Source: Enterobacteria phage vB_EcoM_IME340. From it: a DNA stretch of 64,000 nt. Shown in pieces: positions 7,192-64,000 of this stretch (position 1 is its first letter; the number at the start of each line of letters is the position of its first letter). A model generated the notes under the pieces. It was not told the DNA's origin, made no database searches, and saw nothing but the letters and a program-made list of their open reading frames with translations. The stretch lies in sequence record MH051916; one strand, written 5' to 3'. Made by a program: the position numbers and the translations under genes.

Positions 7192-7199
7192 TATTTATA
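7192..7199 (-). promoter_or_regulatory. T4 late promoter TATAAATA (gene 19)
   Basis: TATAAATA on minus strand just upstream of gp19 start; a second copy at 7251-7258. Confidence 0.55.
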
Positions 7200-7259
7200 T
7201 CCCTATGTTTAACCTAGGGCATATAGAATTAAAGAATTAAGGATATAGTGTATTTATAT

Positions 7260-7277
7260 GGCCTGCCGAAACAGGCC
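7260..7277 (-). terminator. Hairpin after gene 18
   Basis: ggcctg-ccgaaa-caggcc inverted repeat downstream of gp18 stop. Confidence 0.5.
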
Positions 7278-7293
7278 TTTAGAATGCACCGTA

Positions 7294-15674: not shown

Positions 15675-15683
15675 TTGTAATCC

Positions 15684-17896: not shown

Positions 17897-19701
17897 TATG
17901 CAATCCTTATCCAACGGTATACAGTAATAGACGGTTGAATATTACTAATATTAGCAGGAGGAGTATGTGAAGAGTTTGTTGTTGCGTAGTCTTCACGATA
18001 TTTTGTATATATAGGACCAGTTTCATCTGGGTCATATTGGCAACCTCCAATAATAACTGATCCGTTTTCGTCTTCAATTAAAACTCTTTCGTCGGTTTTA
18101 GTTGCAGGAAGATTTGCGTTTTCAAGTGTCACCGTTGTTGTTCCAACTGTTCCACCGGCAGTATGTGAAGGATTTCCGCTAGAATCTAAATCATTATTGT
18201 TTAAAGCAAAGTTTGGATCCGTAACATCATCATTCCATCCTACTAAAACTTGTCCTTTACCAAATAATTTCCATGAACCAAATCCCATATAAGTCACCGG
18301 ATTATTTGGATTTATAGCATTTTCATAAATTGAACCAACAGGATAAATGCTGTCGAAAATAGATGATATTGAATTATACATTCTAGTATAAGAATCAACT
18401 TTTTCAACATTTGGCCAACCGATTTTATCAAAATCTGTTAAGGCTACATCACCAGTAACTTCGGTAGATGATCCTTTGCTAACATAACGGTCATCCGTTA
18501 ATTCAATAATGTCATCTTTTTCTAAAAGAGTTCCTAAATCATTATTGAACCACGTTATAACGATTATATCACCTGATTCAAATTTTCTATCAAATAAAAG
18601 ACTGGTAGGTTTTCCATCTTCATATTCTATAGAATAATCTGTGTTTGATTCTTTCCATTCACCACCAAGAGATATACAACCTTCTCGCGTATCTGAACTA
18701 GCGCCTTCACACAAAAACAGAGGATATCCAGCGGTTCCAGCCTGCTGCTGTAAAATTCCATTAAAACGAACCTCAAGAGAATTAGGATTAATGGGTTCAC
18801 CAGGAATTAATCCAAATGCAGAAAATGGAATTGATTTCATCGCCGATAAATCAGTAACATAAATGCTTCCTTCTAAAGAAGTCTTTGATGTTAGTTTTGA
18901 ATCTAGTACTTTTATTTGGCGTCTTGTATATGAACTTCTCCATTGTGATACACCATCCATAAATGTTTCAATTTGAACGGTGTCACCAATATTACAAGGC
19001 TGTCTTAATCGAATATTAAATCCATCAAGAGGAACTAATTCGCCTTCATTTTCGCCCGGAGAGCCAAAGTCACTATTTTCGCTAAATACATCACCGTAAT
19101 ACAATTCGTTACCACGATGTTTTACTCTGATGTTATTGACATTATAACTAGTTCCATTGAAAACATCTAAAAAGTCAGTTTGTCCTTGAACTTCAACTAA
19201 AAATTCTTTGCGAGCTACATTACTAATATCTGAACTAACAATTTTGTCAATTTGTTTGTTTTTGACATATTCCCAACGTCCTGGAGCGCAATAAACGAGC
19301 TCTAAATCACTAAATTGAATATTAATTTCAACTGATGATGACGACCCTTTAATTGTATCTCCGGAAGCAGCTACTAGTGTAACTGGATTGACGTTCCATG
19401 TAGCAAATACGTCTCTAGCTCTAATTACCTTGTTGTAATCATTAACAGTTCCTTTAGGAAGTTGTAGAGTTACTCTTCCAGACGAAGTATTAATGGCATA
19501 TGATTTTCCCCATTCTGCCGTTAGTGTTTGTCCAGATGAAGCATCATAAGTTTTCCAGGCACCGGCTGAATATGGAACATCTCCATCACCAAGTTCATAA
19601 TAAAGTTCATCAAAGTTTTCATTTATTTTTATACCACCTTTACGCAGGTAGTCACCGGTACCATCATCAACAACATTACCGATATTAATATTTTGTTTCA
19701 T
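17896..19701 (-). CDS. 10: Baseplate wedge protein gp10
   Basis: 601 aa; synteny. Confidence 0.88.
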
Positions 19702-26713: not shown

Positions 26714-27007
26714 CTATTTAATGAATACTTTAGATGATGCCTGAGCCACAGTATCACCGCATGATATTGGATCAGCCATTTGAACAGCTTTCTTTCCAGT
26801 GACATATACCTTAGAAGTTCTAGGTTGTGTCACTCCGCCATGTGTTTCATATGGCTTTTTAATTTCTGTATGTTCTGTAATTGGATCACCTGCTACGAGA
26901 ACAGCAATCCCTCCAGTGAATACTTTACTTTGTGTAGCATTCACAACTGTTGGAGGCCACGCTTCATGGCCAGCAGTAACACACTTATCATAACTTAATC
27001 CTGACAT
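26714..27007 (-). CDS. 5.4: PAAR-repeat spike tip protein gp5.4
   Basis: 97 aa, position downstream of gene 5; size and position of T4 gp5.4. Confidence 0.82.
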
Positions 27008-27564
27008 TATTGCCTCTCATATACGTAGCTTCTCAATTTATTAGCCCAACGACTCCAATTTCCAACTATAGTTTTTGTGTAATTTTTAACAAGAGTTTTT
27101 CTTATTGGAGCTGGAGGATCGGTTGGTTCAGTAGTATCAGAAGATGACCTAGAATTACTGCCAGAACCTCCAGATTCACTTTGTTCTTGGTAGTCATATA
27201 TTAATGTTACTTCATAAGTGAATGTCTTCTGGAGGTTTTGAGGAGCTTTCCATAGATATAACTGAGTATTAGAATCAGTTGGAAGGTCTTCCCATGAAGC
27301 AGCAGTTTTAAATTCATCATCTAAACGATATTTCAATGCGTCATTTCCAAATCCAAACACAGATTCATACGTTCCATATAAATGATTTTCTTCTACTAAA
27401 ACCCCAGGAGTTTCTTCGTAACTAGTTATATTTATAGATACTAACGTTTCACCCGTTTCTAATTGAGCGGTAAAGGTGACGTCGATAGAAGAACCTTCCA
27501 TGGATTCTCCTAAATCAGCGCTCATTGGAAGTATATTAGCCAATGTCAATCCTCGATCCATCAA
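27007..27564 (-). CDS. 5.1: gp5.1-like protein
   Basis: 185 aa ORF between 5 and 5.4, overlapping the gene 5 3' end; synteny only. Confidence 0.65.
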
Positions 27565-29884: not shown

Positions 29885-30337
29885 ATGGCATATTCTGGAA
29901 AATGGGTTCCTAAAAATATATCAAAGTATAGAGGTGACCCTAAAAAAATTACGTATAGATCAAATTGGGAAAAATTCTTTTTTGAATGGTTAGATAAAAA
30001 TCCAGAAATTATTGCATGGGGTAGTGAAACAGCAGTAATTCCTTATTTTTGTAATGCAGAAGGGAAAAAACGTAGATACTTCATGGATATTTGGATGAAA
30101 GATTCTTCTGGACAAGAATTTTTTATTGAAATAAAACCTAAAAAAGAAACACAACCACCAGTTAAACCCGCACATCTAACAACCGCAGCGAAGAAAAGAT
30201 TTATGAATGAAATTTATACATATTCTGTTAATACTGACAAATGGAAAGCAGCGCAATCTTTAGCTGAAAAGCGTGGAATAAAATTTAGAATTTTAACAGA
30301 AGATGGATTACGAGCTCTTGGCTTTAAGGGGGCATAA
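29885..30337 (+). CDS. 4: Head completion protein gp4
   Basis: 150 aa, same length as T4 gp4; first gene of plus-strand block. Confidence 0.88.
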
Positions 30338-33312: not shown

Positions 33313-33348
33313 TACCCTATCAAAACAAATGAGTGATTGGAGAATAAA

Positions 33349-33621
33349 ATGAAAACATTTAAAGAATTTATCAATGAAGCTACTTTTAACGAAAAAGTAA
33401 AAATTAGCAAAGCTGTCAAGACTTTGATTGCTGACATCAATTACCTATATGATATTGATTTAACTGACTATGTAACAGTTGGTAACAAACGTAACTTTTT
33501 CGTGTTTGACATCTCTGAACTTGACCAGAATCAAATTAACAACATTGAGCGTTTTGCTAATGATAAGGGTCTTCGTCATGAGTCAGCGGGTTATAAAAAA
33601 TACGCAATTTATTTAAAATGA
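33349..33621 (+). CDS. ipI: Internal protein (ipI position) with capsid-targeting sequence
   Basis: 90 aa from ATG with GGAG SD (track begins at upstream TTG); N-terminus MKTFKEFINEA is a capsid-targeting sequence (T4 internal proteins begin MKTYQEFIAEA by recollection); first gene after 57B as T4 ipI. Confidence 0.75.
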   Translation: MKTFKEFINEATFNEKVKISKAVKTLIADINYLYDIDLTDYVTVGNKRNFFVFDISELDQNQINNIERFANDKGLRHESAGYKKYAIYLK

Positions 33622-33651
33622 GTTTACTTTTAAATAGGGTTGTGGTACTAT
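33622..33651 (+). promoter_or_regulatory. T4 early promoter (-35 gtttac, -10 tactat)
   Basis: gtttac, 18 bp spacer, tggtactat. Confidence 0.6.
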
Positions 33652-33681
33652 TATCTCATCAAAATTAATTAGGAAAATAAA

Positions 33682-33990
33682 ATGAAAACATTTAAAGAAT
33701 TTATCAATGAAGCGGCTGCACCAAAGACATTCGTTATTAATACTCAAGCGAGTCTTGATGATGAGTACGCGGAGGCAATTCTGAGGTCACTTGCTAAGAA
33801 CGGCGTTGAAGTAATCGCCTCGGACTTTAAGAAAGGGGCTTCCGAGATGTTTATTTCTATAACTAAAGGATCTAAAGCTAAAATCAAATCATCATTCGGT
33901 GTTGCTCGTACCGATCAAATCGACAATCATGACTTTAAACAAACTGGTGTTAAACGGCAGAACATAATTGCATCACGCGGAATAAAATAG
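33682..33990 (+). CDS. Internal-protein-like protein with capsid-targeting sequence
   Basis: 102 aa, N-terminus MKTFKEFINEAAA (capsid-targeting sequence). Confidence 0.72.
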   Translation: MKTFKEFINEAAAPKTFVINTQASLDDEYAEAILRSLAKNGVEVIASDFKKGASEMFISITKGSKAKIKSSFGVARTDQIDNHDFKQTGVKRQNIIASRGIK

Positions 33991-34628: not shown

Positions 34629-34701
34629 TGGGAATTAGCCAAGTTGGTAAGGCACTGGATTTTGATTCCAGGATGCAAAGGTTCGAGTCCTTTATTCCCA
34701 G
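34629..34701 (+). tRNA. tRNA-Gln (anticodon UUG)
   Basis: Cloverleaf folded by hand: acceptor tgggaat/attccca, anticodon loop ttTTGat, T-arm aaagg-ttcgagt-ccttt. Confidence 0.85.
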
Positions 34702-34702
34702 C

Positions 34703-34789
34703 GCGAGAATGGTCAAATTGGTAAAGGCACAGCACTTAAAATGCTGCGGAATGATTTCCTTGTGGGTTCGAGTCCCACTTCTCGCACCA
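34703..34789 (+). tRNA. tRNA-Leu (anticodon UAA), class II, encoded CCA
   Basis: Acceptor gcgagaa/ttctcgc, anticodon loop ctTAAaa, long variable arm, T-loop gttcgag, ends ACCA. Confidence 0.85.
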
Positions 34790-34794
34790 AATTT

Positions 34795-34868
<74 letters not shown>

Positions 34869-34878
34869 ATTTAATTTA

Positions 34879-34952
34879 CTCCGTGTAGCTCAGTTTGGTA
34901 GAGCGTCTGCTTTGGGAGCAGAATGTCGCAGGTTCAAATCCTGCCGCGGAGA
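34879..34952 (+). tRNA. tRNA-Pro (anticodon UGG)
   Basis: Acceptor ctccgtg/cgcggag, D-arm gctc-agtttggtag-agc, anticodon loop ttTGGga, T-arm gcagg-ttcaaat-cctgc. Confidence 0.85.
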
Positions 34953-34954
34953 CT

Positions 34955-35044
34955 GGAGGCGTGGCAGAGTGGTTTAATGCACCGGTCTTGAAAACCGGCA
35001 GTCGCTCCGGCGACTCATAGGTTCAAATCCTATCGCCTCCGCCA
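34955..35044 (+). tRNA. tRNA-Ser (anticodon UGA), class II
   Basis: Acceptor ggaggcg/cgcctcc, anticodon loop ctTGAaa, long variable arm, T-loop ttcaaat, encoded CCA. Confidence 0.85.
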
Positions 35045-35049
35045 GTTTT

Positions 35050-35125
35050 GCTGATTTAGCTCAGTAGGTAGAGCACCTCACTTGTAATGAGGACGTCGGC
35101 GGTTCGATTCCGTCAATCAGCACCA
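35050..35125 (+). tRNA. tRNA-Thr (anticodon UGU)
   Basis: Acceptor gctgatt/aatcagc, anticodon loop ctTGTaa, T-loop ttcgatt, encoded CCA. Confidence 0.85.
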
Positions 35126-35126
35126 A

Positions 35127-35201
35127 GGCCCTGTAGCTGGAAGGTTCAAGCAAGCGACTCATAATCGCCAGATGGTGGTTCAATTCCACCCAGGGCCACC
35201 A
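35127..35201 (+). tRNA. tRNA-Ile (anticodon CAU, presumably lysidine-modified to read AUA)
   Basis: Acceptor ggccctg/cagggcc, anticodon loop ctCATaa, T-arm ggtgg-ttcaatt-ccacc, encoded CCA; T4 tRNA-Ile is known to carry a CAU-derived anticodon. Confidence 0.75.
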
Positions 35202-35210
35202 AATTAATTT

Positions 35211-35297
35211 GGGGAGTTATCCCGTAGAGGTAGCGGTGTGGACTGTAAATTCATTGTCATTGCGACTCGGGTGGTTCGACTCCATCACTCCCCACCA
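35211..35297 (+). tRNA. Class II tRNA-like gene, probable tRNA-Tyr (anticodon GUA)
   Basis: Acceptor ggggagt/actcccc, anticodon arm gtgga-ctGTAaa-ttcat (two G-U pairs), long variable arm, T-arm ggtgg-ttcgact-ccatc, encoded CCA; D-stem has a mismatch. Confidence 0.55.
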
Positions 35298-35301
35298 ATT
35301 T

Positions 35302-35376
35302 GGATGTGTAGCTCAATGGCAGAGCGATCGCCTGTTAAGCGATTGGTTATAGGTTCGAATCCTATCACGTCCGCCA
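35302..35376 (+). tRNA. tRNA-Asn (anticodon GUU)
   Basis: Acceptor ggatgtg/cacgtcc, D-arm gctc-aatggca-gagc, anticodon arm atcgc-ctGTTaa-gcgat, T-arm atagg-ttcgaat-cctat, encoded CCA. Confidence 0.8.
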
Positions 35377-35380
35377 AATC

Positions 35381-35456
35381 CGAGGCATAGCTCAGAAGGA
35401 AGAGCAAGGACCTTCTAAGTCCTAGGTCGTAGGTTCGATCCCTACTGCCTCGACCA
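35381..35456 (+). tRNA. tRNA-Arg (anticodon UCU)
   Basis: Acceptor cgaggca/tgcctcg, D-arm gctc-agaagga-agagc, anticodon loop ctTCTaa, T-arm gtagg-ttcgatc-cctac, encoded CCA. Confidence 0.8.
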
Positions 35457-35472
35457 ATTAAGTGAGGAAAAT

Positions 35473-35823
35473 ATGAAAGGTAATGTTTATTTAGTAGTTC
35501 ATGATTTAACATTCTATTTTAATCACAATGACACTGTTATTTCTGAACGTGTAATTAATTTACTTTATCAGCATGCAGATTATGTTTATGTCGAAAACGA
35601 ATACGGTCATTGGCAATTTCTCAAAAATCGTTCATTTGGTTTAGATGGTTACGAATACTTTGAACGTAAAGACCTTTTAGATAAAATTCCATTATCTACA
35701 CAATATCAAAATCACAAGTCTTTACATAAATGTCGGCTAATTCGAAATGCTGAATCTGCTTATGAAGCAATTGATTTATGGCGTAAACGCCGTGAACAGA
35801 TTGATGCTTTAAAAGAATACTAA
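35473..35823 (+). CDS. Hypothetical protein
   Basis: 116 aa ORF starting 17 nt after tRNA-Arg with SD gaggaaaat. Confidence 0.55.
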   Translation: MKGNVYLVVHDLTFYFNHNDTVISERVINLLYQHADYVYVENEYGHWQFLKNRSFGLDGYEYFERKDLLDKIPLSTQYQNHKSLHKCRLIRNAESAYEAIDLWRKRREQIDALKEY

Positions 35824-36247: not shown

Positions 36248-36811
36248 ATGAAAACCTATGCCGAGTTTTTAACCGAAGCAGCAAAATTACCATCTGAAGC
36301 AGATCTTACTAAAGTATTCTTCCACTTGGACCCAAAAGACCGCGGCGATTTTCTTAAGTGGAAAGCTAAAGCTATTGAAATGTATAACATTGATAATAGT
36401 TCTTTTACGATGAGTCAAGAAAATAAATTCAATAAAGCATTTTTCAAAATTTCTAAGAAACTGGCATCTGGCGCTCAGGTTCCTAAATCTGCCTTAGCTA
36501 CTCCTGAACGTGCACCTGTCAAAATTTCTAAGAATATGTTCGACACTAAAAAATACGTTAATGCTTTGAATAAAGCTCTTGATGCATTGGATGATGCAAA
36601 GAAGGCAGCCCGTGATCTTCAAGATGTGTACACCGATTTTGATCGTAAAACTAAAGGTTCTATTTCAAATAGCGAACGCAATAGTGTAAGTGTTTATTCT
36701 GATAGTCTTGATGTTCTTGGCGATGCGTATACTGAAATTAAAAATCGTATTAACACCGCATCTAAGCTAAAAGCTGCCGCAGAAGCTATAATAACTAAAC
36801 TAGATAAATAA
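36248..36811 (+). CDS. Internal-protein-like protein with capsid-targeting sequence
   Basis: 187 aa; N-terminus MKTYAEFLTEAAK (capsid-targeting sequence); lysine-rich helical body. Confidence 0.7.
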   Translation: MKTYAEFLTEAAKLPSEADLTKVFFHLDPKDRGDFLKWKAKAIEMYNIDNSSFTMSQENKFNKAFFKISKKLASGAQVPKSALATPERAPVKISKNMFDTKKYVNALNKALDALDDAKKAARDLQDVYTDFDRKTKGSISNSERNSVSVYSDSLDVLGDAYTEIKNRINTASKLKAAAEAIITKLDK

Positions 36812-36846: not shown

Positions 36847-36977
36847 TATCTAGGCCTTTCCGGGCCTCTCTAGGCATCATTTAGTTTATATCCTTTATAA
36901 TATATTATCCTACCTTTTAATTGCCCCTCCCCGCCCTAGAATTCCCCAAAACTTTTTAAAAATTTTTTCACAAAACT

Positions 36978-37007
36978 GTTTACATCCCTGTTCTTCCATG
37001 GTACTAT
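36978..37007 (+). promoter_or_regulatory. T4 early promoter with A/T-rich UP element
   Basis: aaactttttaaaaattttttcacaaaactGTTTACa, 18 bp spacer, ggTACTATacaactatcaact. Confidence 0.65.
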
Positions 37008-37051
37008 ACAACTATCAACTACTGATACAGAAAAACAACTTGGAGAATAAA

Positions 37052-37315
37052 ATGGATAATTACGGCGAACTGTTCAACTTCTTTATGAAATGTGTTTCAG
37101 AAGATTTTGGTCGTACAGTGAATGATATTAAAGTTATCGGTCCTGATCATCCGATGTTTGAAACTTACGCAGTAATGGGTAATGAAGATGGTCAGTGGTA
37201 TACTGTAAAGGTTGTGATTAACATGTTCACTGCTGAAGGTTATGTTAAACTGTCTTCTAAAGTTTACCATGATAACGATGAAATCGCAGAAGAATATTTC
37301 AATAATATGAAATAA
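37052..37315 (+). CDS. Hypothetical protein
   Basis: 87 aa from ATG (MDNYGELF) with ggagaataaaATG; the track ORF began upstream across the promoter. Confidence 0.55.
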   Translation: MDNYGELFNFFMKCVSEDFGRTVNDIKVIGPDHPMFETYAVMGNEDGQWYTVKVVINMFTAEGYVKLSSKVYHDNDEIAEEYFNNMK

Positions 37316-39552: not shown

Positions 39553-40795
<1,243 letters not shown>

Positions 40796-40796
40796 T

Positions 40797-40826
40797 GTTT
40801 ACTTCCTCCAAGGACTTTGATACTAT
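40797..40826 (+). promoter_or_regulatory. T4 early promoter (gtttac / tactat)
   Basis: gtttac, 18 bp spacer, tgatactatacattcatcaacta. Confidence 0.6.
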
Positions 40827-40853
40827 ACATTCATCAACTACTTGGAGGAAATT

Positions 40854-41267
40854 ATGACTCGTATCAATTTAACACTTGTTTCTGAACTGACCGACCAACA
40901 TCTTATGGCTGAGTATCGTGAATTACCACGCGTATTTGGTGCAGTCCGTAAACATGTTCAAAACGGTAAACGTGTAAAGGATTTTAAAATCTCTCCAACA
41001 TTTATCTTAGGCACAGGTCACGTAACATTCTTTTATGACAAACTCGAATTTTTACGTTTACGTCAAATCGAGCTAATCGCTGAATGCTTGAAACGTGGTT
41101 TCAAAATCAAGGACACGACTGTCCAGGATATTTCCGACATCCCTGTCGAATTTCGTAATAATTATGTCCCGTCCGAAGCGTCCATTGCGATAAGTCAAGC
41201 TCGCTTAGATGAAAAAATTGCTCAACGCCCTACTTGGTACAAATACTATGGTAAATCAATTTACTAA
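40854..41267 (+). CDS. denV: Endonuclease V (pyrimidine dimer glycosylase) DenV
   Basis: ATG at [31 protein letters not shown], matching recalled T4 endo V; the track ORF began 4 codons upstream. Confidence 0.93.
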
Positions 41268-41273
41268 GGAAAA

Positions 41274-41534
41274 ATGAAAATGTATCAAGAATTTATCGCT
41301 GAAGCAGATGCCAAAGGCCCCAAATTTAAAGTTAAAGCTTTCGTTGGTGATGCCGAAGATTTTGGCTCATTAAAACGTAATGGGTATTTTTTCTTAGGTG
41401 GTGATGGTAAAGAAATCAACACCTATGCAAAACGTAGTGAAATTGCTTATGTTGCTGCAAGTCCTAAAGTAGATGTTGACGATATTGGATACGATTTTAA
41501 CAACTTCGGAATTATTTCTGGCGGTGAAGCTTAA
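41274..41534 (+). CDS. Internal-protein-like protein with capsid-targeting sequence
   Basis: 86 aa; N-terminus MKMYQEFIAEA. Confidence 0.7.
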   Translation: MKMYQEFIAEADAKGPKFKVKAFVGDAEDFGSLKRNGYFFLGGDGKEINTYAKRSEIAYVAASPKVDVDDIGYDFNNFGIISGGEA

Positions 41535-41537
41535 ACG

Positions 41538-41568
41538 GTTTACGCTTAAGTATTAATATGGTATAATT
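41538..41568 (+). promoter_or_regulatory. T4 early promoter (gtttac / tataat)
   Basis: gtttac, ~19 bp spacer, ggtataattactctatcaaaac. Confidence 0.55.
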
Positions 41569-41597
41569 ACTCTATCAAAACAAACAAGGAAACAAAA

Positions 41598-41912
41598 ATG
41601 AAAACATATAAAGAATTTATTGCAGAATCCGCCAACCAACGCGTTGAAGGTGGTTATATTTGGATTGAACAAGTTGAGCCACCGAGCCGCACTTCTACAG
41701 GTAAATGGAAAATTACTGTTGATGGTCCTGGTGGTAAACGTAGGACTCTTAAAGAAATTAATGGGTACTATGAAGAAGCTCTTTCGGATGCAGGAACTTA
41801 CATGATGCAAATCATGATTAAAAACCCTGAAAACCGTTTTGCAGCTAAAGTCTTCCGACGCATCGGTAATAAACTTTATGACGCATACTCTAAAAACTTC
41901 CCTAAAGAATAA
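41598..41912 (+). CDS. Internal protein, ipII-like size
   Basis: 104 aa; N-terminus MKTYKEFIAESA (capsid-targeting sequence). Confidence 0.72.
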   Translation: MKTYKEFIAESANQRVEGGYIWIEQVEPPSRTSTGKWKITVDGPGGKRRTLKEINGYYEEALSDAGTYMMQIMIKNPENRFAAKVFRRIGNKLYDAYSKNFPKE

Positions 41913-41938
41913 CATGAATTAAAACAATAGGAACAAAA

Positions 41939-42517
41939 ATGAAAACGTATCAAGAATTTATTGCTGAAGCTTCTGTAGTAAAGGCCAAAGGCATTAATAA
42001 GGACGAGTGGAACTATCGTGGTGGAAACGGCTTTGACCCTAAAACAGCCCCTATTGAACGATACTTAGCTACAAAAGCTTCCGATTTTAAAGCTTTCGCT
42101 TGGGAAGGACTTCGCTGGCGTACCGATTTAAATATTGAAGTTGACGGACTTAAATTTGCTCATATTGAAGATGTTGTTGCTAGTAACTTAGACGCAGCTT
42201 TTGTTAAAGCCGACAGTGATCTTCGTCGCTGGAATTTAAAACTGTTCTCTAAACAAAAAGGCCCGAAGTTTGTGCCTAAAGCCGGTAAATGGGTCATTGA
42301 TAATAAATTAGCTAAGGCTGTCAACTACGCTGGTCTTGAATTCGCCAAGCACAAATCATCATGGAAAGGTCTTGATGCAATGGCTTTCCGTAAAGAATTT
42401 GCCGATGTTATGGCTAAAGGCGGCTTTAAGGCAGAAATAGATACCTCTAAAGGTACGTTTAAGGACGCTAATGTTCAGTACGCTTACGCCGTTGCTAATG
42501 CAGCCCGTGGTAATTAA
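41939..42517 (+). CDS. Internal protein, ipIII-like size
   Basis: 192 aa; N-terminus MKTYQEFIAEAS, identical over the first 11 residues to the capsid-targeting sequence recalled for T4 internal proteins. Confidence 0.75.
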   Translation: MKTYQEFIAEASVVKAKGINKDEWNYRGGNGFDPKTAPIERYLATKASDFKAFAWEGLRWRTDLNIEVDGLKFAHIEDVVASNLDAAFVKADSDLRRWNLKLFSKQKGPKFVPKAGKWVIDNKLAKAVNYAGLEFAKHKSSWKGLDAMAFRKEFADVMAKGGFKAEIDTSKGTFKDANVQYAYAVANAARGN

Positions 42518-44749: not shown

Positions 44750-45211
44750 ATGACTATCAACACAGAAGTTTTTATCCGTCGAAATAAGCTTCGTCGTCAC
44801 TTTGAGTCGGAGTTTCGTCAAATTAACAATGAGATTCATGAGGCATCAAAAGCAGCAGGAGTCTCATCGTTTCATCTAAAATATTCTCAACATCTTCTTG
44901 ATCGTGCAATTCAACGGGAGATTGATGAGACATATGTTTTTGAATTATTCCACAAAATAAAAGACCATGTTTTAGAAGTTAATGAATTCCTGAGTATGCC
45001 TCCGCGTCCTGACATTGATGAGGATTTTATTGATGGAGTTGAATATCGCCCTGGACGTTTAGAAATTACAGATGGAAATCTTTGGCTTGGATTTACGGTT
45101 TGTAAGCCTAATGAGAAGTTCAAAAACCCGTCACTTCAATGCAGGATGGCAATTATCAACAGTCGTCGTTTACCAGGAAAGGCTTCTAAAGCAGTAATTA
45201 AAACTCAATGA
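44750..45211 (+). CDS. regB: Site-specific endoribonuclease RegB
   Basis: 153 aa, same length as T4 RegB; basic N-terminus; expected position between vs genes and denV side. Confidence 0.8.
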   Translation: MTINTEVFIRRNKLRRHFESEFRQINNEIHEASKAAGVSSFHLKYSQHLLDRAIQREIDETYVFELFHKIKDHVLEVNEFLSMPPRPDIDEDFIDGVEYRPGRLEITDGNLWLGFTVCKPNEKFKNPSLQCRMAIINSRRLPGKASKAVIKTQ

Positions 45212-45218
45212 GGTAAGC

Positions 45219-45764
45219 ATGAGAAAAGCACTACTCGCTGGTCTATTGGCCATTTCAATGATGGCACATAGCTCCGAGCATACTTTCAGTAATGTCCAAC
45301 TCGATAACATGCGTTACGCATATCAATTCGGGGAACAATTTTCTAAGGATGGAAAATATAAAACACACAAAAATATCCACAAGAGTGGATTAGGTCATAT
45401 AATGGCTGCTATTTTATGGCAAGAAAGCTCTGCCGGAGTTAATTTAAAATCTAAACCAAAGCATCATGCCTATGGAATGTTCCAAAATTATTTGCCGACC
45501 ATGCGAGCAAGAGTTAAGGAACTTGGTTATAATATGACCGATGCTGAAATAAAAAGAATGTTGAATAAACGGTCCAATTCAGCTTCCTGGGCGTACATTG
45601 AACTTTCTTATTGGTTAAATATACATAAGGGCGATATAAGAAAGGCAATATCCTCTTATAATTCGGGATGGAATGTTAAAGCAGGTTCTAAATATGCTTC
45701 TGAAGTCCTAGAAAAGGCTAACTACCTTAAAAATAATAAACTGTTGGAAATAGTAAATGACTAA
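45219..45764 (+). CDS. Secreted lytic-transglycosylase-like protein (T4 vs.1 position)
   Basis: 181 aa; signal peptide MRKALLAGLLAISMMAHS; SLT-like motifs ILWQESS, YGMFQNY, SSYNSGWN. Confidence 0.7.
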   Translation: MRKALLAGLLAISMMAHSSEHTFSNVQLDNMRYAYQFGEQFSKDGKYKTHKNIHKSGLGHIMAAILWQESSAGVNLKSKPKHHAYGMFQNYLPTMRARVKELGYNMTDAEIKRMLNKRSNSASWAYIELSYWLNIHKGDIRKAISSYNSGWNVKAGSKYASEVLEKANYLKNNKLLEIVND

Positions 45765-46104
45765 AATTTTGGTTTTATGTATAGGATTAATTTCATTTTC
45801 TGCTTATGCGTCAGCAGATACATCATATACTGAAATTAGGGAGTATGTGAACCGCACTGCAGCGGATTATTGTGGGAAAAATAAAGCATGCCAAGCTGAA
45901 TTTGCGCAGAAATTAATATATGCATATAAAGACGGAGAAAGAGATAAATCAAGCAGATACAAAAACGATACATTATTAAAACGATATGCTAAAAAGTGGA
46001 ATACCCTAGAATGTTCAGTTGCGGAGGAAAAAGATAAAGCCGCTTGTCATTCAATGGTTGACCGTTTAGTAGATTCTTATAATCGAGGATTGAGTACTAG
46101 ATGA
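45757..46104 (+). CDS. vs: Valyl-tRNA synthetase modifier-like secreted protein
   Basis: 115 aa with signal peptide, same length and position as T4 vs. Confidence 0.6.
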   Translation: MTKILVLCIGLISFSAYASADTSYTEIREYVNRTAADYCGKNKACQAEFAQKLIYAYKDGERDKSSRYKNDTLLKRYAKKWNTLECSVAEEKDKAACHSMVDRLVDSYNRGLSTR

Positions 46105-46580: not shown

Positions 46581-46764
46581 TCCTAAAAACAAAGCAGTAA
46601 TTATTCGTCAATGGGAACGCATTTGCCGTACTAAATGTCCAATTAATAGTCCACATGATGTAGATAAAGACTACATTGGAACATTCGTTGAATATACATT
46701 TATTGATAAGAAAGGTCGTAAACAGCATGTAGAAGAATACTGCGTAAAGGTGACATGGTTATGA
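46552..46764 (+). CDS. Hypothetical protein
   Basis: 70 aa ORF overlapping neighbours. Confidence 0.45.
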   Translation: MKVHYPHPFDPKNKAVIIRQWERICRTKCPINSPHDVDKDYIGTFVEYTFIDKKGRKQHVEEYCVKVTWL

Positions 46765-46967
46765 GCCAAACTAGTATTCTTAAAAATGCCCACTGTGAAA
46801 AGTGTAAGTGGCCGGTTGTTTTTGCTTTATGTAACGATGAAATGGCTTGTGATTTCGATTATTGGTGCTATTGTTCTAATAAAGGATGCATCAATCATAA
46901 AGGTGAAGGATTTTATTCGGGATTTTATCCTTATCCAGATTTCGTTAAAGAAGGTAAACCGAAATGA
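46755..46967 (+). CDS. Cysteine-rich small protein (possible zinc binding)
   Basis: 70 aa with CEKCKW...CNDEMACDFDYWCYCSNKGC. Confidence 0.5.
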   Translation: MVMSQTSILKNAHCEKCKWPVVFALCNDEMACDFDYWCYCSNKGCINHKGEGFYSGFYPYPDFVKEGKPK

Positions 46968-47137
46968 ATAGTTCTGAGTTACAATATGAAGTGTTACGTG
47001 AACTTGATAATTTAATTGAACTCGCTGTTAATAAAGGTTTTGCCATTGGAATTGGTCAAAAAGATACTGATCATTTAACTGTGGAAATATTTAAGCAAAA
47101 GCGAATTATTTTAAAACTTCTGGAAATTAATATATGA
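46964..47137 (+). CDS. Small hypothetical protein
   Basis: 57 aa ORF (MNSSELQYEVLRELDNLIELAVNKGF...) overlapping the previous stop. Confidence 0.4.
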   Translation: MNSSELQYEVLRELDNLIELAVNKGFAIGIGQKDTDHLTVEIFKQKRIILKLLEINI

Positions 47138-50043: not shown

Positions 50044-50228
50044 TGACAAGTGAGCAGGCTTTTAAATTAAGAGAATTAATTGAGACGTATAGTAGAGCTG
50101 TTCATACATCAACAATTATTGATGAATCAGCTTTCTCCGGACATGCTAACAAGATTAAATACAAAACTCTTATGGAAGAAGCTAAAGTAAATCTTGATTC
50201 TTATATTGAAACTTTAATTGGTAAATAA
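50043..50228 (+). CDS. Small helical protein, ~60 aa paralog family member
   Basis: 61 aa (MTSEQAFKLRELIETYSRAV...). Confidence 0.5.
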   Translation: MTSEQAFKLRELIETYSRAVHTSTIIDESAFSGHANKIKYKTLMEEAKVNLDSYIETLIGK

Positions 50229-50229
50229 T

Positions 50230-50772
50230 ATGAAAGCTGTAATTGAAACAACTGATTTGTTCGGTGACCTGGTTATCGAAAAACGTGATAATGTATACGT
50301 TCTGACGCAGGAAGACGATAATATTACTATTCTTCCTATGGAACTGGCTGCGATTTTATCTTATGCTCCCTCAGGAGTTACCGGTGTAACTAATATTACA
50401 GGCGACCTCCAAGTTCGTTTTTATCGTGGCCTTTACGGCGGTAATATTGAAACTGAATTTATGTGTCTTTCTATCAACAATTGGGCAACATTCGTTACCA
50501 AGGTGAAAGAATTCTTGGAATCTGAAACAATCGAAACACCCGAAAAGGCTAAACTTCAATGGGCTAAAGATCGCGGTGCTAGCATTATTAATCCAGTAGC
50601 TGCAAATTATACTACGACTTTGGATGTCAAGACTTCTTATGAAGATGGCGATGTCGTACTTGTTCGCCAAATTGATGATTCTCGAGCACATATTGTCACA
50701 TTTACCAAAGACGAAGCTATTGCACTAAAGACTTATCTTGATTCTGTCATTCCAACTATGATTTCAAAGTGA
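50230..50772 (+). CDS. Hypothetical protein, tandem paralog 1
   Basis: 180 aa from ATG at MKAVIETTD; C-terminus KDEAIALKTYLDSVIPTM resembles the next ORF. Confidence 0.6.
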   Translation: MKAVIETTDLFGDLVIEKRDNVYVLTQEDDNITILPMELAAILSYAPSGVTGVTNITGDLQVRFYRGLYGGNIETEFMCLSINNWATFVTKVKEFLESETIETPEKAKLQWAKDRGASIINPVAANYTTTLDVKTSYEDGDVVLVRQIDDSRAHIVTFTKDEAIALKTYLDSVIPTMISK

Positions 50773-50778
50773 GGAAAT

Positions 50779-51300
50779 ATGTTTATTTCAAGTGGAAGTG
50801 GTTTAATTCGCGTTGAATTTAAAAATGACATCTTTCTTATTCAAGGAGATGATATTATTAAAATGAGTTATGACGAAATCAAGAAAATTTGTCATGCTCT
50901 TGAAAGTCATGGAAAAGTGAACGCTGTTATTGATATTGGCGATTTATGGGTGACACTTTATGAAGTATCCGAAGGATTTAACATTGAAGATGAAAATAAC
51001 ATTTTAGCTATTGATAAAAGAACTGATTTGTTTGATGTATTAAAAGCCTATGAGCAGTCAAATGGCGGAAGAAAAGCTGTATTGATTTATCAAAAACCGC
51101 ATTCATGTGGAACTGCTTCAATCATTTCAAATATTGAAGGCGAAGTTGATACTTATATGTGTGTTTTAAAAGCTGGTGGTGACCGTCATCCGGATTTTAT
51201 TTCTATTCGTCAAAACAATGAAGAAATTTCATTGTCAAAATCAGAAGCTGAAGCTATGATTAAGTATTTAACAACCGTTACGCCTTCAATGAAAGGATAA
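50779..51300 (+). CDS. Hypothetical protein, tandem paralog 2
   Basis: 173 aa; C-terminus KSEAEAMIKYLTTVTPSM resembles the previous ORF. Confidence 0.6.
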   Translation: MFISSGSGLIRVEFKNDIFLIQGDDIIKMSYDEIKKICHALESHGKVNAVIDIGDLWVTLYEVSEGFNIEDENNILAIDKRTDLFDVLKAYEQSNGGRKAVLIYQKPHSCGTASIISNIEGEVDTYMCVLKAGGDRHPDFISIRQNNEEISLSKSEAEAMIKYLTTVTPSMKG

Positions 51301-51302
51301 TT

Positions 51303-51764
51303 ATGATTATTAATGAAAACTCTTGGCACTATAAATTATTCAAATTGTTTAACGATGAATGGCAACGACCTAAGACACTATGCGCATATTTTTGGTCTAT
51401 TGCCATACCTACATTTTTCGTTTCTATTTTTGGGTGTGCTATACTCGTAGGGTTAACAATTATTTGTGCAGAAAGCCTACAACGTTGGCTTATTTTCGGT
51501 AGTTTATGGACTCTTCTTCCATCGGCATTTATACTTGCGCTTTTGGTTGTTTTACTTATTATCGGTTCATTTGTTATTCCTGCACATTTGCGTGAAAAAT
51601 ATAAAGATTATAAATGGAAAAAGGATTATGCTTTACACGTAGAAAATATTGATAGGGCGTATAAAGGTTTACCTCCTATTCAACCCAAGAAATCGATTAT
51701 CGTTGAATTTTTAAAAGCTCGTAAAGCTAAAGTATGTCCTGTTATTGAATATAAGGCTGAATGA
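51303..51764 (+). CDS. Membrane protein
   Basis: 153 aa with two long hydrophobic helices. Confidence 0.6.
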   Translation: MIINENSWHYKLFKLFNDEWQRPKTLCAYFWSIAIPTFFVSIFGCAILVGLTIICAESLQRWLIFGSLWTLLPSAFILALLVVLLIIGSFVIPAHLREKYKDYKWKKDYALHVENIDRAYKGLPPIQPKKSIIVEFLKARKAKVCPVIEYKAE

Positions 51765-52776: not shown

Positions 52777-52802
52777 GGGAGCCTTCGGGCTCCCTTTTTT
52801 AT
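52777..52802 (+). terminator. Rho-independent terminator
   Basis: gggagcc-ttcg-ggctccc hairpin followed by tttttt. Confidence 0.75.
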
Positions 52803-52825
52803 TTCAAAATTTTTTTCACAAAACG

Positions 52826-52855
52826 GTTTACAAGCATAAAGCTTTATGGTACTAT
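52826..52855 (+). promoter_or_regulatory. T4 early promoter with UP element
   Basis: aaaatttttttcacaaaacgGTTTACa, 18 bp spacer, tggTACTATacaactatcaact, then ggagaataaaATG. Confidence 0.65.
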
Positions 52856-52889
52856 ACAACTATCAACTGATACGGATTTGGAGAATAAA

Positions 52890-53858
52890 ATGAAAACTGT
52901 AACTATCAATAAGGGTATCTACTTCGGTAAAGAAATCTCTGGAACTTTTGAGCTCTTAGGCGAATGGTTCCCAGATAATGCTCCGGTAGATGCACAAGGA
53001 GATGGTAAAGTTTTTGTTGAAATTGACGGTAAACGTCGCGGTGTTTGGGTTTACAAATCAGATATTTCATATGATGGTGTAAAAGTTGAAGAAGTTAAAG
53101 AATCGTATGAAGATATGAAAACCCGCATTAATAAAAGATTTAATGTTATGGGAATGATGACGAATGGTATTATTAATGGAAATATTCGTTCATTAATTAT
53201 CTCTGGCGCAGCAGGTATTGGTAAAACGTATTCTTTAGATAAAGCTTTAAATAAAGCAAATGATAATGGATACATTGAATATAAAAGCATTAATGGTAAA
53301 ATCTCTGGTATTGGTCTTTATGAGCAGCTTTGGAATAATCGTGAAGAGAATTCTGTCCTTTTGATTGATGATGTGGATGTTTTTTCTGATATGGACATTC
53401 TTAATCTTCTGAAAGCTGCTCTGGACACTGGAGAGACCCGTAAAGTCTGCTGGAGCACTGCATCTTCTTACTTAGAAGAAAAAGGCATTGACCGTGAGTT
53501 TGAATTTAAAGGAACGATTGTTTTTATCACAAACGTTGACATTGACCGCGAATTAGACCGTGGTACTAAACTTGCCCCACACTTACAAGCATTAGTGTCA
53601 CGCTCAGTTTATTTGGATTTGGGTGTTCACACTAATGAAGAAATTATGGTCAGGGTTGAAGATGTTATTCTTTCAACTGACATGATGCAAAAGCGCGGTC
53701 TTTCTGATGAAGAAACTTATAAAGCATTATCATGGATGAAAGTTAATGTTAATCGTTTACGCAATGTTTCACTGCGTACTGCTCTTTATCTTGCTGACTT
53801 TATTATGACCGACAAAAACGGTTGGGAAGAAATTGCTGAGGTTACTCTTCTGAAATAA
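52890..53858 (+). CDS. AAA+ ATPase
   Basis: 322 aa from ATG at MKTVTINK; Walker A SGAAGIGKT, Walker B VLLIDDVD. Confidence 0.72.
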   Translation: MKTVTINKGIYFGKEISGTFELLGEWFPDNAPVDAQGDGKVFVEIDGKRRGVWVYKSDISYDGVKVEEVKESYEDMKTRINKRFNVMGMMTNGIINGNIRSLIISGAAGIGKTYSLDKALNKANDNGYIEYKSINGKISGIGLYEQLWNNREENSVLLIDDVDVFSDMDILNLLKAALDTGETRKVCWSTASSYLEEKGIDREFEFKGTIVFITNVDIDRELDRGTKLAPHLQALVSRSVYLDLGVHTNEEIMVRVEDVILSTDMMQKRGLSDEETYKALSWMKVNVNRLRNVSLRTALYLADFIMTDKNGWEEIAEVTLLK

Positions 53859-54264: not shown

Positions 54265-54294
54265 GTTTACAAGACTGTTCCTCTGTGGTACTAT
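54265..54294 (+). promoter_or_regulatory. T4 early promoter (gtttac / tactat)
   Basis: gtttac, 18 bp spacer, tgtggTACTATacaactatcaactac. Confidence 0.65.
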
Positions 54295-54322
54295 ACAACT
54301 ATCAACTACGGAGGAACACAAA

Positions 54323-60743: not shown

Positions 60744-61190
60744 ATGATTACAGTAGATAAGTGGTTTAGAATTAATCGTGCTGATAAAGAGCTGTGTAAT
60801 TACTGGCCAGAACTTAGTGCAGGTACTGTCTTTAAAGTTCGTGAACTTGTAAAAGAATGTGAAGATGATATAGAACCTGATACTGGAATTATTGAAATTG
60901 AACTTTCTGATGGAAAGATTATTAACATCTACGATAAGCCAATTACGTATTGGTGCTTATGGAATACTGAATCAGTAGAAAATGGCGAAATTGAAGAAGT
61001 TGTAGAACGAGTTGATCAAGCTATTCATAAACCTAAAGCCGCTTTTCAAGGTGAACGTATTTCATATGCATTAGCTAAATTAGCTGCGCAAGAAAATAAC
61101 GATGGTTATGAAGGAAATTTGATGCAAGCTGCGGCAGAATATATTGAATGGCTTGAAACTCAAATTTCTTTTTCTGACCGAGCGTTTTAA
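60744..61190 (+). CDS. Hypothetical acidic protein (T4 pin region)
   Basis: 148 aa from ATG at MITVDKWF (track began at upstream TTG); lies between nrdC and 49 where T4 carries pin, but identity not verified. Confidence 0.5.
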   Translation: MITVDKWFRINRADKELCNYWPELSAGTVFKVRELVKECEDDIEPDTGIIEIELSDGKIINIYDKPITYWCLWNTESVENGEIEEVVERVDQAIHKPKAAFQGERISYALAKLAAQENNDGYEGNLMQAAAEYIEWLETQISFSDRAF

Positions 61191-61366
61191 TGAAAACTGA
61201 ATTGGTTTATACTGAAAAGTTAAATGGTGGTAAGGTTTGGAAACTTTTTATTAAAGGAAGTCCTACCGACTCTAATATGACCACTTGTGTAGGAACTTAT
61301 TCTCGTCCTACTAAAAAGATGATTCGGCAATATAAGCGATTGCATCGAATGTTTTACAATACTTGA
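61190..61366 (+). CDS. Small basic protein
   Basis: 58 aa ORF (MKTELVYTEKLNGGKVWKLFIKGSPTD...) overlapping the previous stop. Confidence 0.4.
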   Translation: MKTELVYTEKLNGGKVWKLFIKGSPTDSNMTTCVGTYSRPTKKMIRQYKRLHRMFYNT

Positions 61367-61407: not shown

Positions 61408-61881
61408 ATGTTATTGACTGGCAAATTATACAAAGAAGAAAAACAGAAATTTTATGATGCACAAAACGGTAAATGCTTAATTTGCCAACGAGAATTAAAT
61501 CCTGATGTTCAAGCTAATCACCTTGACCATGACCATGAATTAAATGGACCGAAAGCTGGAAAGGTACGTGGATTGCTTTGTAATCTATGCAATGCTGCGG
61601 AAGGTCAAATGAAGCATAAATTTAATCGTTCTGGCTTAAAGGGACAAGGTGTTGATTATCTTGAATGGTTAGAAAATTTACTTACTTATTTAAAATCCGA
61701 TTACACCCAAAATAATATTCACCCTAACTTTGTTGGAGATAAATCAAAGGAATTTTCTCGTTTAGGAAAAGAGGAAATGATGGCTGAGATGCTTCAAAGA
61801 GGATTTGAATATAATGAATCTGACACTAAAACACAATTAATAGCTTCATTTAAGAAGCAGCTTAGAAAGAGTTTAAAATGA
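61408..61881 (+). CDS. 49: Endonuclease VII (Holliday junction resolvase) gp49
   Basis: 157 aa; MLLTGKLYKEEKQKFYDAQNGKCLICQREL...HLDHDHELNGPKAGKVRGLLCNLCN zinc/His-Cys motif, matching recalled T4 endo VII. Confidence 0.93.
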   Translation: MLLTGKLYKEEKQKFYDAQNGKCLICQRELNPDVQANHLDHDHELNGPKAGKVRGLLCNLCNAAEGQMKHKFNRSGLKGQGVDYLEWLENLLTYLKSDYTQNNIHPNFVGDKSKEFSRLGKEEMMAEMLQRGFEYNESDTKTQLIASFKKQLRKSLK

Positions 61882-63695
61882 CAATTGAAAAAGAAATTGA
61901 AGGATTAATTCATAAAACTAATAAAGACCTTTTAAACGAGAATGCTAATAAAGATTCTCGTGTTTTTCCAACTCAACGGGACCTTATGGCTGGTATTGTG
62001 TCTAAACACATTGCCAAAAATATGGTCCCGTCTTTTATTATGAAAGCGCATGAAAGCGGAATTATCCATTTCCATGATATTGATTATTCTCCTGCTCTTC
62101 CATTTACTAATTGCTGTTTAGTAGATTTAAAAGGAATGCTTGAGAACGGATTTAAGCTCGGTAATGCACAGATTGAAACTCCTAAATCAATTGGCGTTGC
62201 TACTGCAATTATGGCACAAATTACTGCACAGGTTGCTTCTCATCAATATGGCGGAACGACTTTTGCGAATGTAGATAAAGTCCTTTCTCCTTATGTTAAA
62301 CGCACCTATGCAAAACATATTGAGGACGCGGAAAAATGGCAAATCGCTGATGCATTGAATTATGCCCAATCTAAAACAGAAAAAGACGTATACGATGCAT
62401 TCCAAGCTTATGAATATGAAGTAAATACTCTCTTTAGTTCAAACGGACAAACGCCCTTTGTAACAATTACATTTGGCACGGGAACTGACTGGACCGAACG
62501 AATGATTCAGAAAGCAATTCTGAAAAATCGTATTAAAGGTCTTGGTCGTGATGGGATAACTCCTATTTTCCCTAAACTTGTCATGTTCGTTGAAGAAGGT
62601 GTTAATCTTTATAAAGACGATCCGAATTATGATATTAAGCAGCTTGCTTTAGAGTGCGCAAGCAAAAGAATGTATCCTGACATCATTTCGGCTAAGAACA
62701 ATAAAGCTATCACCGGTTCATCTATTCCTGTTTCTCCAATGGGTTGCCGTAGTTTCTTGGGCGTATGGAAAGATTCGACTGGTAATGAAATTCTTGATGG
62801 ACGTAATAATCTTGGTGTTGTAACACTGAATCTTCCTCGCATTGCGCTAGATTCTTATATTGGAACACAGTTCAATGAACAGAAATTTGCCGAATTGTTC
62901 AATGAGCGAATGGATTTATGTTTTGAAGCATTGATGTGTAGAATTAGTTCCTTAAAAGGAGTTAAAGCTACTGTTGCTCCTATTCTTTACCAAGAAGGTG
63001 CATTCGGGGTTCGTCTTAAACCTGATGACGATATAATTGAGTTATTTAAAAACGGTAGAAGTTCAGTGTCCTTAGGATACATTGGTATTCACGAATTGAA
63101 TATTCTTGTCGGTCGTGATATTGGACAAGAAATTTTAACTAAAATGAATGCTCATCTTAAGCAGTGGACTGAAAGAACTGGTTTTGCTTTTAGCTTGTAT
63201 TCTACTCCTGCTGAAAACCTGTGCTATCGCTTCTGTAAACTTGATACCGAAAAATATGGAAGTGTAAAAGATGTTACCGATAAAGGCTGGTACACTAACA
63301 GTTTCCATGTTTCAGTAGAAGAAAATATTACTCCGTTTGAAAAGATTTCTCGCGAAGCCCCATATCATTTCATCGCGACAGGCGGTCACATTTCTTATGT
63401 TGAACTTCCTGATATGAAAAATAACCTAAAAGGCCTTGAGGCTGTATGGGATTATGCTGCACAACATTTAGATTATTTTGGCGTTAATATGCCAGTAGAT
63501 AAATGTTTTACGTGTGGAAGTACCCATGAAATGACTCCTACTGAAAACGGATTTGTTTGTTCTATTTGTGGAGAAACTGATCCTAAAAAGATGAACACAA
63601 TAAGAAGAACATGTGGCTATTTGGGAAATCCGAATGAACGCGGATTTAATCTTGGCAAAAATAAAGAAATCATGCATAGGGTTAAACACCAATGA
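61878..63695 (+). CDS. nrdD: Anaerobic ribonucleoside-triphosphate reductase NrdD
   Basis: 605 aa uninterrupted; C-terminal zinc ribbon CFTCGSTHEM...CSICGE and glycyl-radical motif RRTCGYLG. Confidence 0.95.
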   Translation: MTIEKEIEGLIHKTNKDLLNENANKDSRVFPTQRDLMAGIVSKHIAKNMVPSFIMKAHESGIIHFHDIDYSPALPFTNCCLVDLKGMLENGFKLGNAQIETPKSIGVATAIMAQITAQVASHQYGGTTFANVDKVLSPYVKRTYAKHIEDAEKWQIADALNYAQSKTEKDVYDAFQAYEYEVNTLFSSNGQTPFVTITFGTGTDWTERMIQKAILKNRIKGLGRDGITPIFPKLVMFVEEGVNLYKDDPNYDIKQLALECASKRMYPDIISAKNNKAITGSSIPVSPMGCRSFLGVWKDSTGNEILDGRNNLGVVTLNLPRIALDSYIGTQFNEQKFAELFNERMDLCFEALMCRISSLKGVKATVAPILYQEGAFGVRLKPDDDIIELFKNGRSSVSLGYIGIHELNILVGRDIGQEILTKMNAHLKQWTERTGFAFSLYSTPAENLCYRFCKLDTEKYGSVKDVTDKGWYTNSFHVSVEENITPFEKISREAPYHFIATGGHISYVELPDMKNNLKGLEAVWDYAAQHLDYFGVNMPVDKCFTCGSTHEMTPTENGFVCSICGETDPKKMNTIRRTCGYLGNPNERGFNLGKNKEIMHRVKHQ

Positions 63696-64000
63696 ATTAC
63701 GATAGATTTTATCCCTGCGATTTTGTGAATGGCCCTGGATGCAGGGTCGTTCTTTTCGTTACAGGTTGTTTGCATAAATGTGAAGGGTGTTATAATAAAT
63801 CAACATGGAATGCTAGAAATGGCGTTCCATTCACTGGTGAAACACTAGAACAATTAATTGAATGTTTGAATAATGATTATATAGAAGGATTAACTATAAC
63901 TGGAGGAGACCCTCTTTATCCTGATAACCGAGATGATGTTCATTGCATTGTTCAAACGGTAAAAAATCTTTATCCGAATAAAAGCATTTGGTTGTGGACA
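63692..64000 (+). CDS. nrdG: Anaerobic RNR activating enzyme NrdG (radical SAM), truncated by window end
   Basis: Start overlaps nrdD stop; CLHKCEGCYN radical-SAM CxxxCxxC cluster motif; ORF runs to window end. Confidence 0.88.
   Translation, partial: MNYDRFYPCDFVNGPGCRVVLFVTGCLHKCEGCYNKSTWNARNGVPFTGETLEQLIECLNNDYIEGLTITGGDPLYPDNRDDVHCIVQTVKNLYPNKSIWLWT

Follow-up and report, generated by a model that had tools for sequence, protein, structure and literature searches.

Organization of the 49-nrdD-nrdG locus

Gene 49, nrdD and nrdG follow one another on the + strand at the end of the DNA analysed here, a stretch of 64,000 nucleotides from Enterobacteria phage vB_EcoM_IME340 (MH051916), hereinafter designated the window. 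Gene 49 (61408-61881, + strand) codes for recombination endonuclease VII. Its product is 100% identical in amino-acid sequence to T4 gp49 and matches the Pfam families Endonuclease_7 (2.1e-21) and Endonuc-dimeris (8.6e-33). The Endonuclease_7 match is the sole match to a Pfam nuclease family near nrdD, and it belongs to a recombination resolvase (the Holliday-junction resolvase of T4) that has its own Pfam family, lies directly upstream of nrdD and is no homing enzyme. The stop codon of gene 49 overlaps the start of nrdD by 4 nt.

nrdD (61878-63695, + strand), the gene for the large subunit of class III (anaerobic) ribonucleotide reductase, is a single continuous open reading frame (ORF) of 605 aa that is free of introns, just as a preliminary description of this DNA had stated. 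The encoded protein covers the whole Pfam NRDD model (PF13597, E=1.2e-170, model positions 1-562 of 562) and has a C-terminal glycyl-radical domain (Gly_radical, 1.6e-25). Specifically, RRTCGYLG and CFTCG...CSICG in its translation represent the glycyl-radical motif and the Cys4 metal site. Compared with spliced T4 NrdD, only 5 of the 605 residues differ.

nrdG (63692-64000, + strand), the gene for the radical-SAM activase of NrdD, is represented by the first 103 of its ~156 codons, and the window end cuts the rest. With the C-terminal third outside the window, the translated part matches Fer4_12 (1.3e-30) and Radical_SAM (4.1e-06) in Pfam and contains the sequence CLHKCEGC, which fits the CX3CX2C iron-sulfur cluster motif. 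The allele is of the T2 type, the part present having 97% amino-acid identity to T2 NrdG and 70% to T4 NrdG.

The nrdD stop codon overlaps the nrdG start codon, as described before, in an ATGA at 63692-63695 (+ strand). The 3' end of nrdD reads ...CACCAATGAATTACGAT, and the letters of the junction are ...CAC CAA TGA in the nrdD frame versus ATG AAT TAC in the nrdG frame. The nrdD frame closes with TGA at 63693-63695, while nrdG opens at 63692 in another frame. The two genes therefore overlap and are not fused. The preliminary description had called nrdD 'fused' to nrdG, but no single frame runs through both domains, and a stop codon lies between them within the 4-nt overlap. The two genes are probably translated in coupled fashion, because nrdG starts inside the nrdD stop codon.

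The window as a whole is a Tequatrovirus segment. Blastn comparison shows that it is collinear with the reverse complement of the T4 map (NC_000866) from ~42.8 to 108.5 kb, with 90-97% identity along the collinear stretch. Late genes 24 to 53 occupy the - strand from 1 to 29.8 kb. Early and middle genes, namely 4, 2, 3, 1, the tRNA cluster, e, tk, rI, the nrdC region and 49-nrdD-nrdG, occupy the + strand from 29.9 to 64 kb, and the sign of the GC skew flips at 30 kb. The closest database genomes are Tequatroviruses of E. coli and Shigella with ~96-98% identity, none of which is identical. The window is mosaic, with top database matches that are only ~96% identical and change along its length. 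With a best 25-kb database match of 96%, the annotation was carried over from T4 and T2, not from an identical record.

The intron insertion site in nrdD

In T4, a group I intron interrupts nrdD. The preliminary description had proposed an alignment to the T4 exon junction, and this alignment places the empty insertion site at 62415/62416 (+ strand), inside codon Tyr180 (T/AT). Specifically, T4 positions 45850 and 44814 flank window positions 62413/62416 in the blastn alignment, and T4 44815-45847, the 1033 nt of the intron, is absent from the window. The exact junction was taken from the spliced T4 sequence.

The window was searched for group I introns with Rfam. No match to Intron_gpI (RF00028) was found on either strand of the 64 kb, at the gathering threshold or at E<=5, and the Rfam matches over the window at the gathering threshold are tRNAs only. 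As a positive control, the T4 nrdD intron scored 105.3 bits, with a gathering score of 50.

The exon sequence around the insertion site, which corresponds to the homing region of the intron endonuclease I-TevII (62406-62460, + strand), is a T2-type allele. It reads GCTTATGAAT/ATGAAGTAAATACTCTCTTT in the window versus GCTTATGAGT/ATGAAGTGAACACGTTATTC in T4, where the slash marks the intron insertion site. Over 105 nt of the homing region, the window has a single difference from T2. Around the insertion and cleavage sites, the window departs from the T4 exon context at 7 of 30 positions. The differences from T4 in the homing region are silent and cluster just downstream of the insertion site, where a 60-nt bin holds 10 window/T4 mismatches versus ~3 per 60 nt elsewhere in nrdD. 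T4-type flanks are found in no intron-less record, and the best uninterrupted match to the spliced T4 junction is 95%.

Slots of the T4 homing endonuclease genes

The T4 annotation lists six homing endonuclease genes (HEGs) in the interval that corresponds to the window: mobC, I-TevII, mobD, segB, segC and segD. It bears out the preliminary description, which had named the nrdD intron of T4 and HEGs in the T4 tRNA, nrdC and nrd regions and had made no mention of mobC at the T4 nrdD/nrdG junction or of the gp49 nuclease upstream of nrdD. None of the six is present in the window, and synteny with T4 (blastn) shows a clean gap or a replacement at each position.

At the locus itself, two slots are empty. 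The T4 annotation places mobC between nrdD and nrdG, where the window has the ATGA overlap (63692-63695, + strand), and the slot of the intron with I-TevII is the uninterrupted codon 180 (62415/62416, + strand).

The other four slots lie elsewhere in the window. The mobD slot (51303-51764, + strand) holds an ORF for a 153-aa membrane protein (phrog_944, membrane protein) without a nuclease domain; by synteny with T4, this ORF sits between two y05I/mobD.1 paralogs and nrdC.11. The slot measures 963 bp in the window versus 809 bp in T4, and a hidden HEG was therefore considered here. This candidate was rejected, since the ORFs in the slot are the two y05I/mobD.1 paralogs and the membrane protein, without a nuclease domain. 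The segB slot (35202-35380, + strand) contains tRNA-Tyr and tRNA-Asn, as identified with ARAGORN. The slot of segC and 5.3 (27004-27010, - strand) is a direct junction of genes 5.1 and 5.4 at 27007: the window lacks T4 80215-80778, and ORFs 27007-27564 and 26714-27007 abut. Finally, the segD slot (1222-1281) is a ~60-bp spacer between gene 23 and gene 24, with T4 106521-107311, which includes segD, replaced.

Searches for homing endonuclease genes

The claim that the window has no HEG held up in every search applied: tblastn, seg and mob HMMs, Pfam, PHROGs and synteny with T4. All 15 T4 HEG proteins gave tblastn matches to the window with E>=0.1 throughout, and those of HNH/mob type gave E>1. 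The search with GIY-YIG and HNH HMMs, which the preliminary description had proposed, used models built from T4 proteins, nine of the GIY-YIG and five of the HNH type, with all filters switched off. Among 909 six-frame segments of the window, no match was found below E=0.65 with the GIY-YIG (seg) HMM or below E=1 with the HNH (mob) HMM.

Pfam assigned no GIY-YIG, SegE_GIY-YIG, HNH, NUMOD or LAGLIDADG family to the 74 + strand ORFs of 29.9-64 kb, and the 18 antisense ORFs of at least 80 aa had no Pfam match. The six T4 HEGs of the interval served as a positive control, and all match GIY-YIG, SegE_GIY-YIG, NUMOD or HNH in Pfam, with scores that are partly low at 18-28 bits (HNH of mobD 18, I-TevII 22). 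Given these low scores for some T4 HEGs, a highly diverged HEG of an undescribed family could escape among the small ORFs without an assigned function.

Homology to T4 accounts for most ORFs of the window. All 25 late ORFs of 1-29.9 kb match T4 genes other than HEGs (24 of 25 over the full length), as do 63 of the 78 + strand ORFs. The 15 + strand ORFs without a T4 homologue fall into PHROG or Pfam families, none of which is annotated as a nuclease, and several are internal-head-protein-like.

Nuclease-type domains in the window are those of gp49 (Endonuclease_7), gp4 (TnsA-like N-terminal domain), DenV and RegB, all conserved T4 functions. gp4 (29885-30337) was considered as a HEG on account of its TnsA-like endonuclease domain; it is the T4 head-completion protein, with 99% identity. 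The N-termini of SegB and SegC gave tblastn matches at 25743-25895 on the + strand (E 0.1-0.2). We take these as chance, because they run antisense inside the conserved gene 6 and are missed by the GIY-YIG HMM.

Predicted susceptibility to mobile elements of T4

According to the preliminary description, the phage would be a target for invasion by the T4 intron and HEGs in mixed infection. Compared with this expectation, the sequence is in good agreement for segB and leaves invasion by I-TevII only plausible. The preferred SegB site, of 27 bp, has been mapped inside the tRNA-Asn gene of T2L, and T4 x T2L crosses yielded segB in 99.6% of the progeny versus 63% when segB was disrupted (PMC2330249). 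The window tRNA-Asn (35302-35376) is identical at 75 of 75 positions to the tRNA-Asn of a T2 record, which is a different isolate from T2L, and it holds the core motif of the SegB site, GGTTCGAATCC, at 35352. The window thus has a tRNA-Asn gene that carries the preferred site mapped in T2L and, on this good evidence, is a plausible target for SegB invasion from T4.

The nrdD site, with its T2 allele and its seven differences in 30 positions from T4, is an only plausible target of I-TevII. The differences between the window and T4 lie around the insertion site and the stretch that I-TevII reportedly cuts. The site could thus be a resistant (immune) allele instead, one whose silent substitutions block I-TevII cleavage, so that the T4 nrdD intron would not be gained in mixed infection. 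Three observations speak for resistance: the seven differences around the insertion site and the presumed cut region, a mismatch density there ~3-fold that of the remaining nrdD, and the lack of any intron-less record with T4-type flanks, 95% being the best uninterrupted match. However, polymorphic flanks are the classical intron-minus pattern. Quirk et al. reportedly found in 1989 that flanks are conserved in intron-plus and polymorphic in intron-minus phages, a pattern usually ascribed to co-conversion in intron-plus phages. In addition, GIY-YIG endonucleases of phages are relaxed in specificity, and I-TevII tolerates degenerate sites, to the point of cleaving its own intron at a sequence that only resembles its target (PMC3984707). 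We therefore regard resistance of the nrdD site as rather unlikely.

At the nrdD/nrdG junction, mobC of T4 lies exactly in the ATGA overlap and shares its first seven codons (MNYDRIY) with nrdG. Further into nrdG, nt ~90-300 form a sharply bounded, diverged patch, in which T4 has 68% nucleotide identity to the window and T2 over the part present. Beyond residue ~103, in the C-terminal third, NrdG of T2 and T4 are identical. The T4-type patch is found in coliphage records only beside mobC (32 records) and otherwise resembles Klebsiella T4-like phages (82-92% identity). The restriction of the patch to records with mobC, together with its likeness to Klebsiella phages, suggests that mobC may have entered T4 together with a co-converted foreign flank. 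Going further, the patch may mark both the MobC target and the co-conversion tract; T4 would have gained mobC with a Klebsiella-like 5' segment of nrdG, and the common allele in the window would be the one sensitive to MobC. We put this extended proposal forward only tentatively. If it is true, the locus would lend itself readily to mapping where MobC cuts.

Interpretation of the locus

An intron-free nrdD without HEGs is real but ordinary, and it is the usual state of T4's relatives. Searches with 200-nt probes centred on the intron site and on the nrdD-nrdG junction found the intron site uninterrupted in 607 of 670 matching phage records (about 90%) and the junction uninterrupted in 562 of 817. 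The unusualness implied by the preliminary description is thus not borne out, with T2 arranged identically and nine-tenths of the related records uninterrupted at the intron site. The arrangement is already known. That introns occur in some T-even phages and not in others has been known since 1987-89, and intron and HEG variability, homing and marker exclusion were established between 1987 and 2010. T4, with 15 HEGs, has been termed 'an oddity' among its relatives (PMC2988022), and HEG counts are 1 in T2, 2 each in RB14, RB15 and RB18, and none in RB26 (Table 5 of PMC2993671).

We conclude, with a probability of roughly 95%, that the three genes form a standard Tequatrovirus operon of the T2 type (49-nrdD-nrdG), with the mobile-element slots of T4 unoccupied. 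No observation speaks against this structure. Specifically, nrdD encodes the glycyl-radical anaerobic ribonucleotide reductase in one uninterrupted ORF, and nrdG its radical-SAM activase. The unfilled slots are those of the group I intron with I-TevII (codon 180) and of mobC (nrdD/nrdG junction) at the locus, and those of mobD, segB, segC and segD elsewhere in the window. In co-infection with T4, the phage would behave as a T2-like recipient, and local markers would probably be lost by endonuclease-initiated gene conversion.

The empty sites could also be secondary, if the lineage once had the intron, free-standing HEGs or both and lost them precisely, e.g. by recombination with an intron-less relative. 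The mosaic nature of the window, whose ~96% best matches shift along its length, would suit such a history, and close relatives carry an intron (IME537, with ~97.7% exon identity), so gain and loss are both frequent in this gene pool. However, no scar is visible: the six-frame searches found no remnants of an intron or HEG, nothing disrupts the ATGA overlap, and the flanking sequence is the majority T2-type allele. Secondary loss is accordingly unlikely. It is very improbable that a HEG or intron is present but was overlooked as degenerate or of an undescribed family; 15 ORFs lack a T4 homologue, most of them without an assigned function, and the sensitivity of Pfam is marginal for some phage HEGs, but all 15 belong to PHROG or Pfam families without nuclease annotation, none lies inside or beside a conserved gene as HEGs do, and Rfam is empty for introns at E<=5.

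As a T2-type operon with unoccupied slots, the locus places the phage among the Tequatroviruses poor in HEGs, which are the majority, and its alleles at nrdD, nrdG and tRNA-Asn are of the T2 type. From the work on T4 x T2, marker loss to T4 is expected around the tRNA cluster and possibly at nrdD and nrdG, which is a practical point for cocktails that mix such phages with T4-like, HEG-rich phages. Beyond annotation, the significance is little.

Comparison with T2, T4 and IME537

The closest counterpart of the locus is that of T2 (AP018813, 40366-43120). T2 likewise has a continuous nrdD of 605 aa, which overlaps gene 49 and nrdG by 4 nt each, and no mobC, and its nrdD has 96.3% nucleotide and 99.5% amino-acid identity to that of the window. 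Unlike T2, the window has a 58-aa DUF7279 ORF (61190-61366) between pin and gene 49, and it has a T4-like tRNA-Thr where T2 has an ORF, as fits its mosaic nature.

T4 shares gene order and orientation with the window in its 49-nrdD(sunY)-mobC-nrdG region (NC_000866, 42446-46855), including the fully identical gp49. Unlike in the window, nrdD codon 180 of T4 is split by a group IA intron of 1033 nt that encodes I-TevII, and the nrdD/nrdG overlap is the exact insertion point of mobC (210 aa, HNH). The nrdG of T4 differs from that of the window by the diverged patch at nt ~90-300.

Escherichia phage vB_EcoM_IME537 resembles the window in its nrdD exons, which are 97-98% identical, and resembles T4 in having an intron at the identical nrdD site. 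This intron is 1045 nt long, with 66% nucleotide identity to the T4 intron, and its endonuclease has 56% amino-acid identity to I-TevII. The exon-2 flank of IME537 is a third allele, unlike that of the window. IME537 thus represents a second, diverged lineage of intron and endonuclease at the nrdD site that is uninterrupted in the window and in T2.

Divergence at the nrdD/nrdG junction

In T4, mobC is placed exactly within the ATGA overlap of nrdD and nrdG, whereas this overlap is intact in the window and in T2. The first seven codons, MNYDRIY, are common to T4 mobC and nrdG, a duplication of ~21 nt (window 63692-63712; positions 6907-7539 and 6447-6917 of L001, the T4 sequence used for comparison). 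Within nrdG, nt ~90-309 (window 63780-64000) form a sharply bounded divergent patch, with nucleotide identity of 68% to T4 and 95% to T2. Among coliphage records in the database, the T4-type patch is found only adjoining mobC (32 records); otherwise, it resembles the sequence of Klebsiella T4-like phages, with 82-92% identity. This distribution suggests that the T4-type patch would be a foreign flank brought in with mobC by co-conversion.

A second lineage of nrdD intron is present in Escherichia phage IME537 (1215-2259 of L007, its own numbering). This intron of 1045 nt occupies the identical insertion site, but shares only 66% nucleotide identity with the T4 intron, and its endonuclease shares 56% amino acid identity with I-TevII. 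The exon-2 flank of IME537 is a third allele.

Structural genes, tRNA genes and internal proteins

The products of wac and the genes for gp12, gp11 and gp10 (window 14217-19701) are 62-85% identical to those of T4 at the amino acid level, compared with 98-100% for the surrounding structural genes. This stretch is the usual host-range mosaic patch.

The tRNA cluster (window 34629-35823) contains ten tRNA genes (Gln, Leu, Gly, Pro, Ser, Thr, Met-type CAT, Tyr, Asn and Arg), compared with eight in T4. Its Met-Tyr-Asn-Arg portion is T2-type, as is a 116-aa ORF at 35473-35823 (98% amino acid identity). The tRNA-Tyr was called by ARAGORN, while Rfam gives just a weak tRNA-Sec match. Escape from Septu defence was recently linked to a phage tRNA-Tyr (PMC13096335).

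Seven ORFs (window 33337-33990, 36248-36811 and 40514-42517) have internal-protein-type N-termini (MKT[Y/F]xEF...), compared with three internal proteins in T4. The denV homologue, with 78.6% nucleotide and 91% amino acid identity to T4, is located between e and ipIII, not after ipII.

Intergenic repeats and insertions relative to T4

An intergenic repeat of ~90-100 bp, at window 36955-37061, 52792-52896 and 54265-54312, has intergenic matches in T4 at ~6.6, 27.0, 55.3, 70.7 and 146.9 kb (76-97% identity). The repeat may correspond to the early-promoter/stem-loop cassettes known in T4-type phages.

Compared with T4, the tk.3 and tk.2 homologues are separated by an insertion of two small ORFs (window 46755-47137): a 70-aa ORF that carries a Phage_zn_bind domain, and another of 57 aa. 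An insertion of ~137 bp separating pin and gene 49 contains a 58-aa ORF (61190-61366; Pfam DUF7279, 2.4e-15), which is absent from both T4 and T2. Window 50218-51764 contains two tandem y05I/mobD.1 paralogs (Pfam T4_y05I_N, T4_y05I_C) and a 153-aa membrane protein, while the same slot of T4 contains one mobD.1, followed by mobD.
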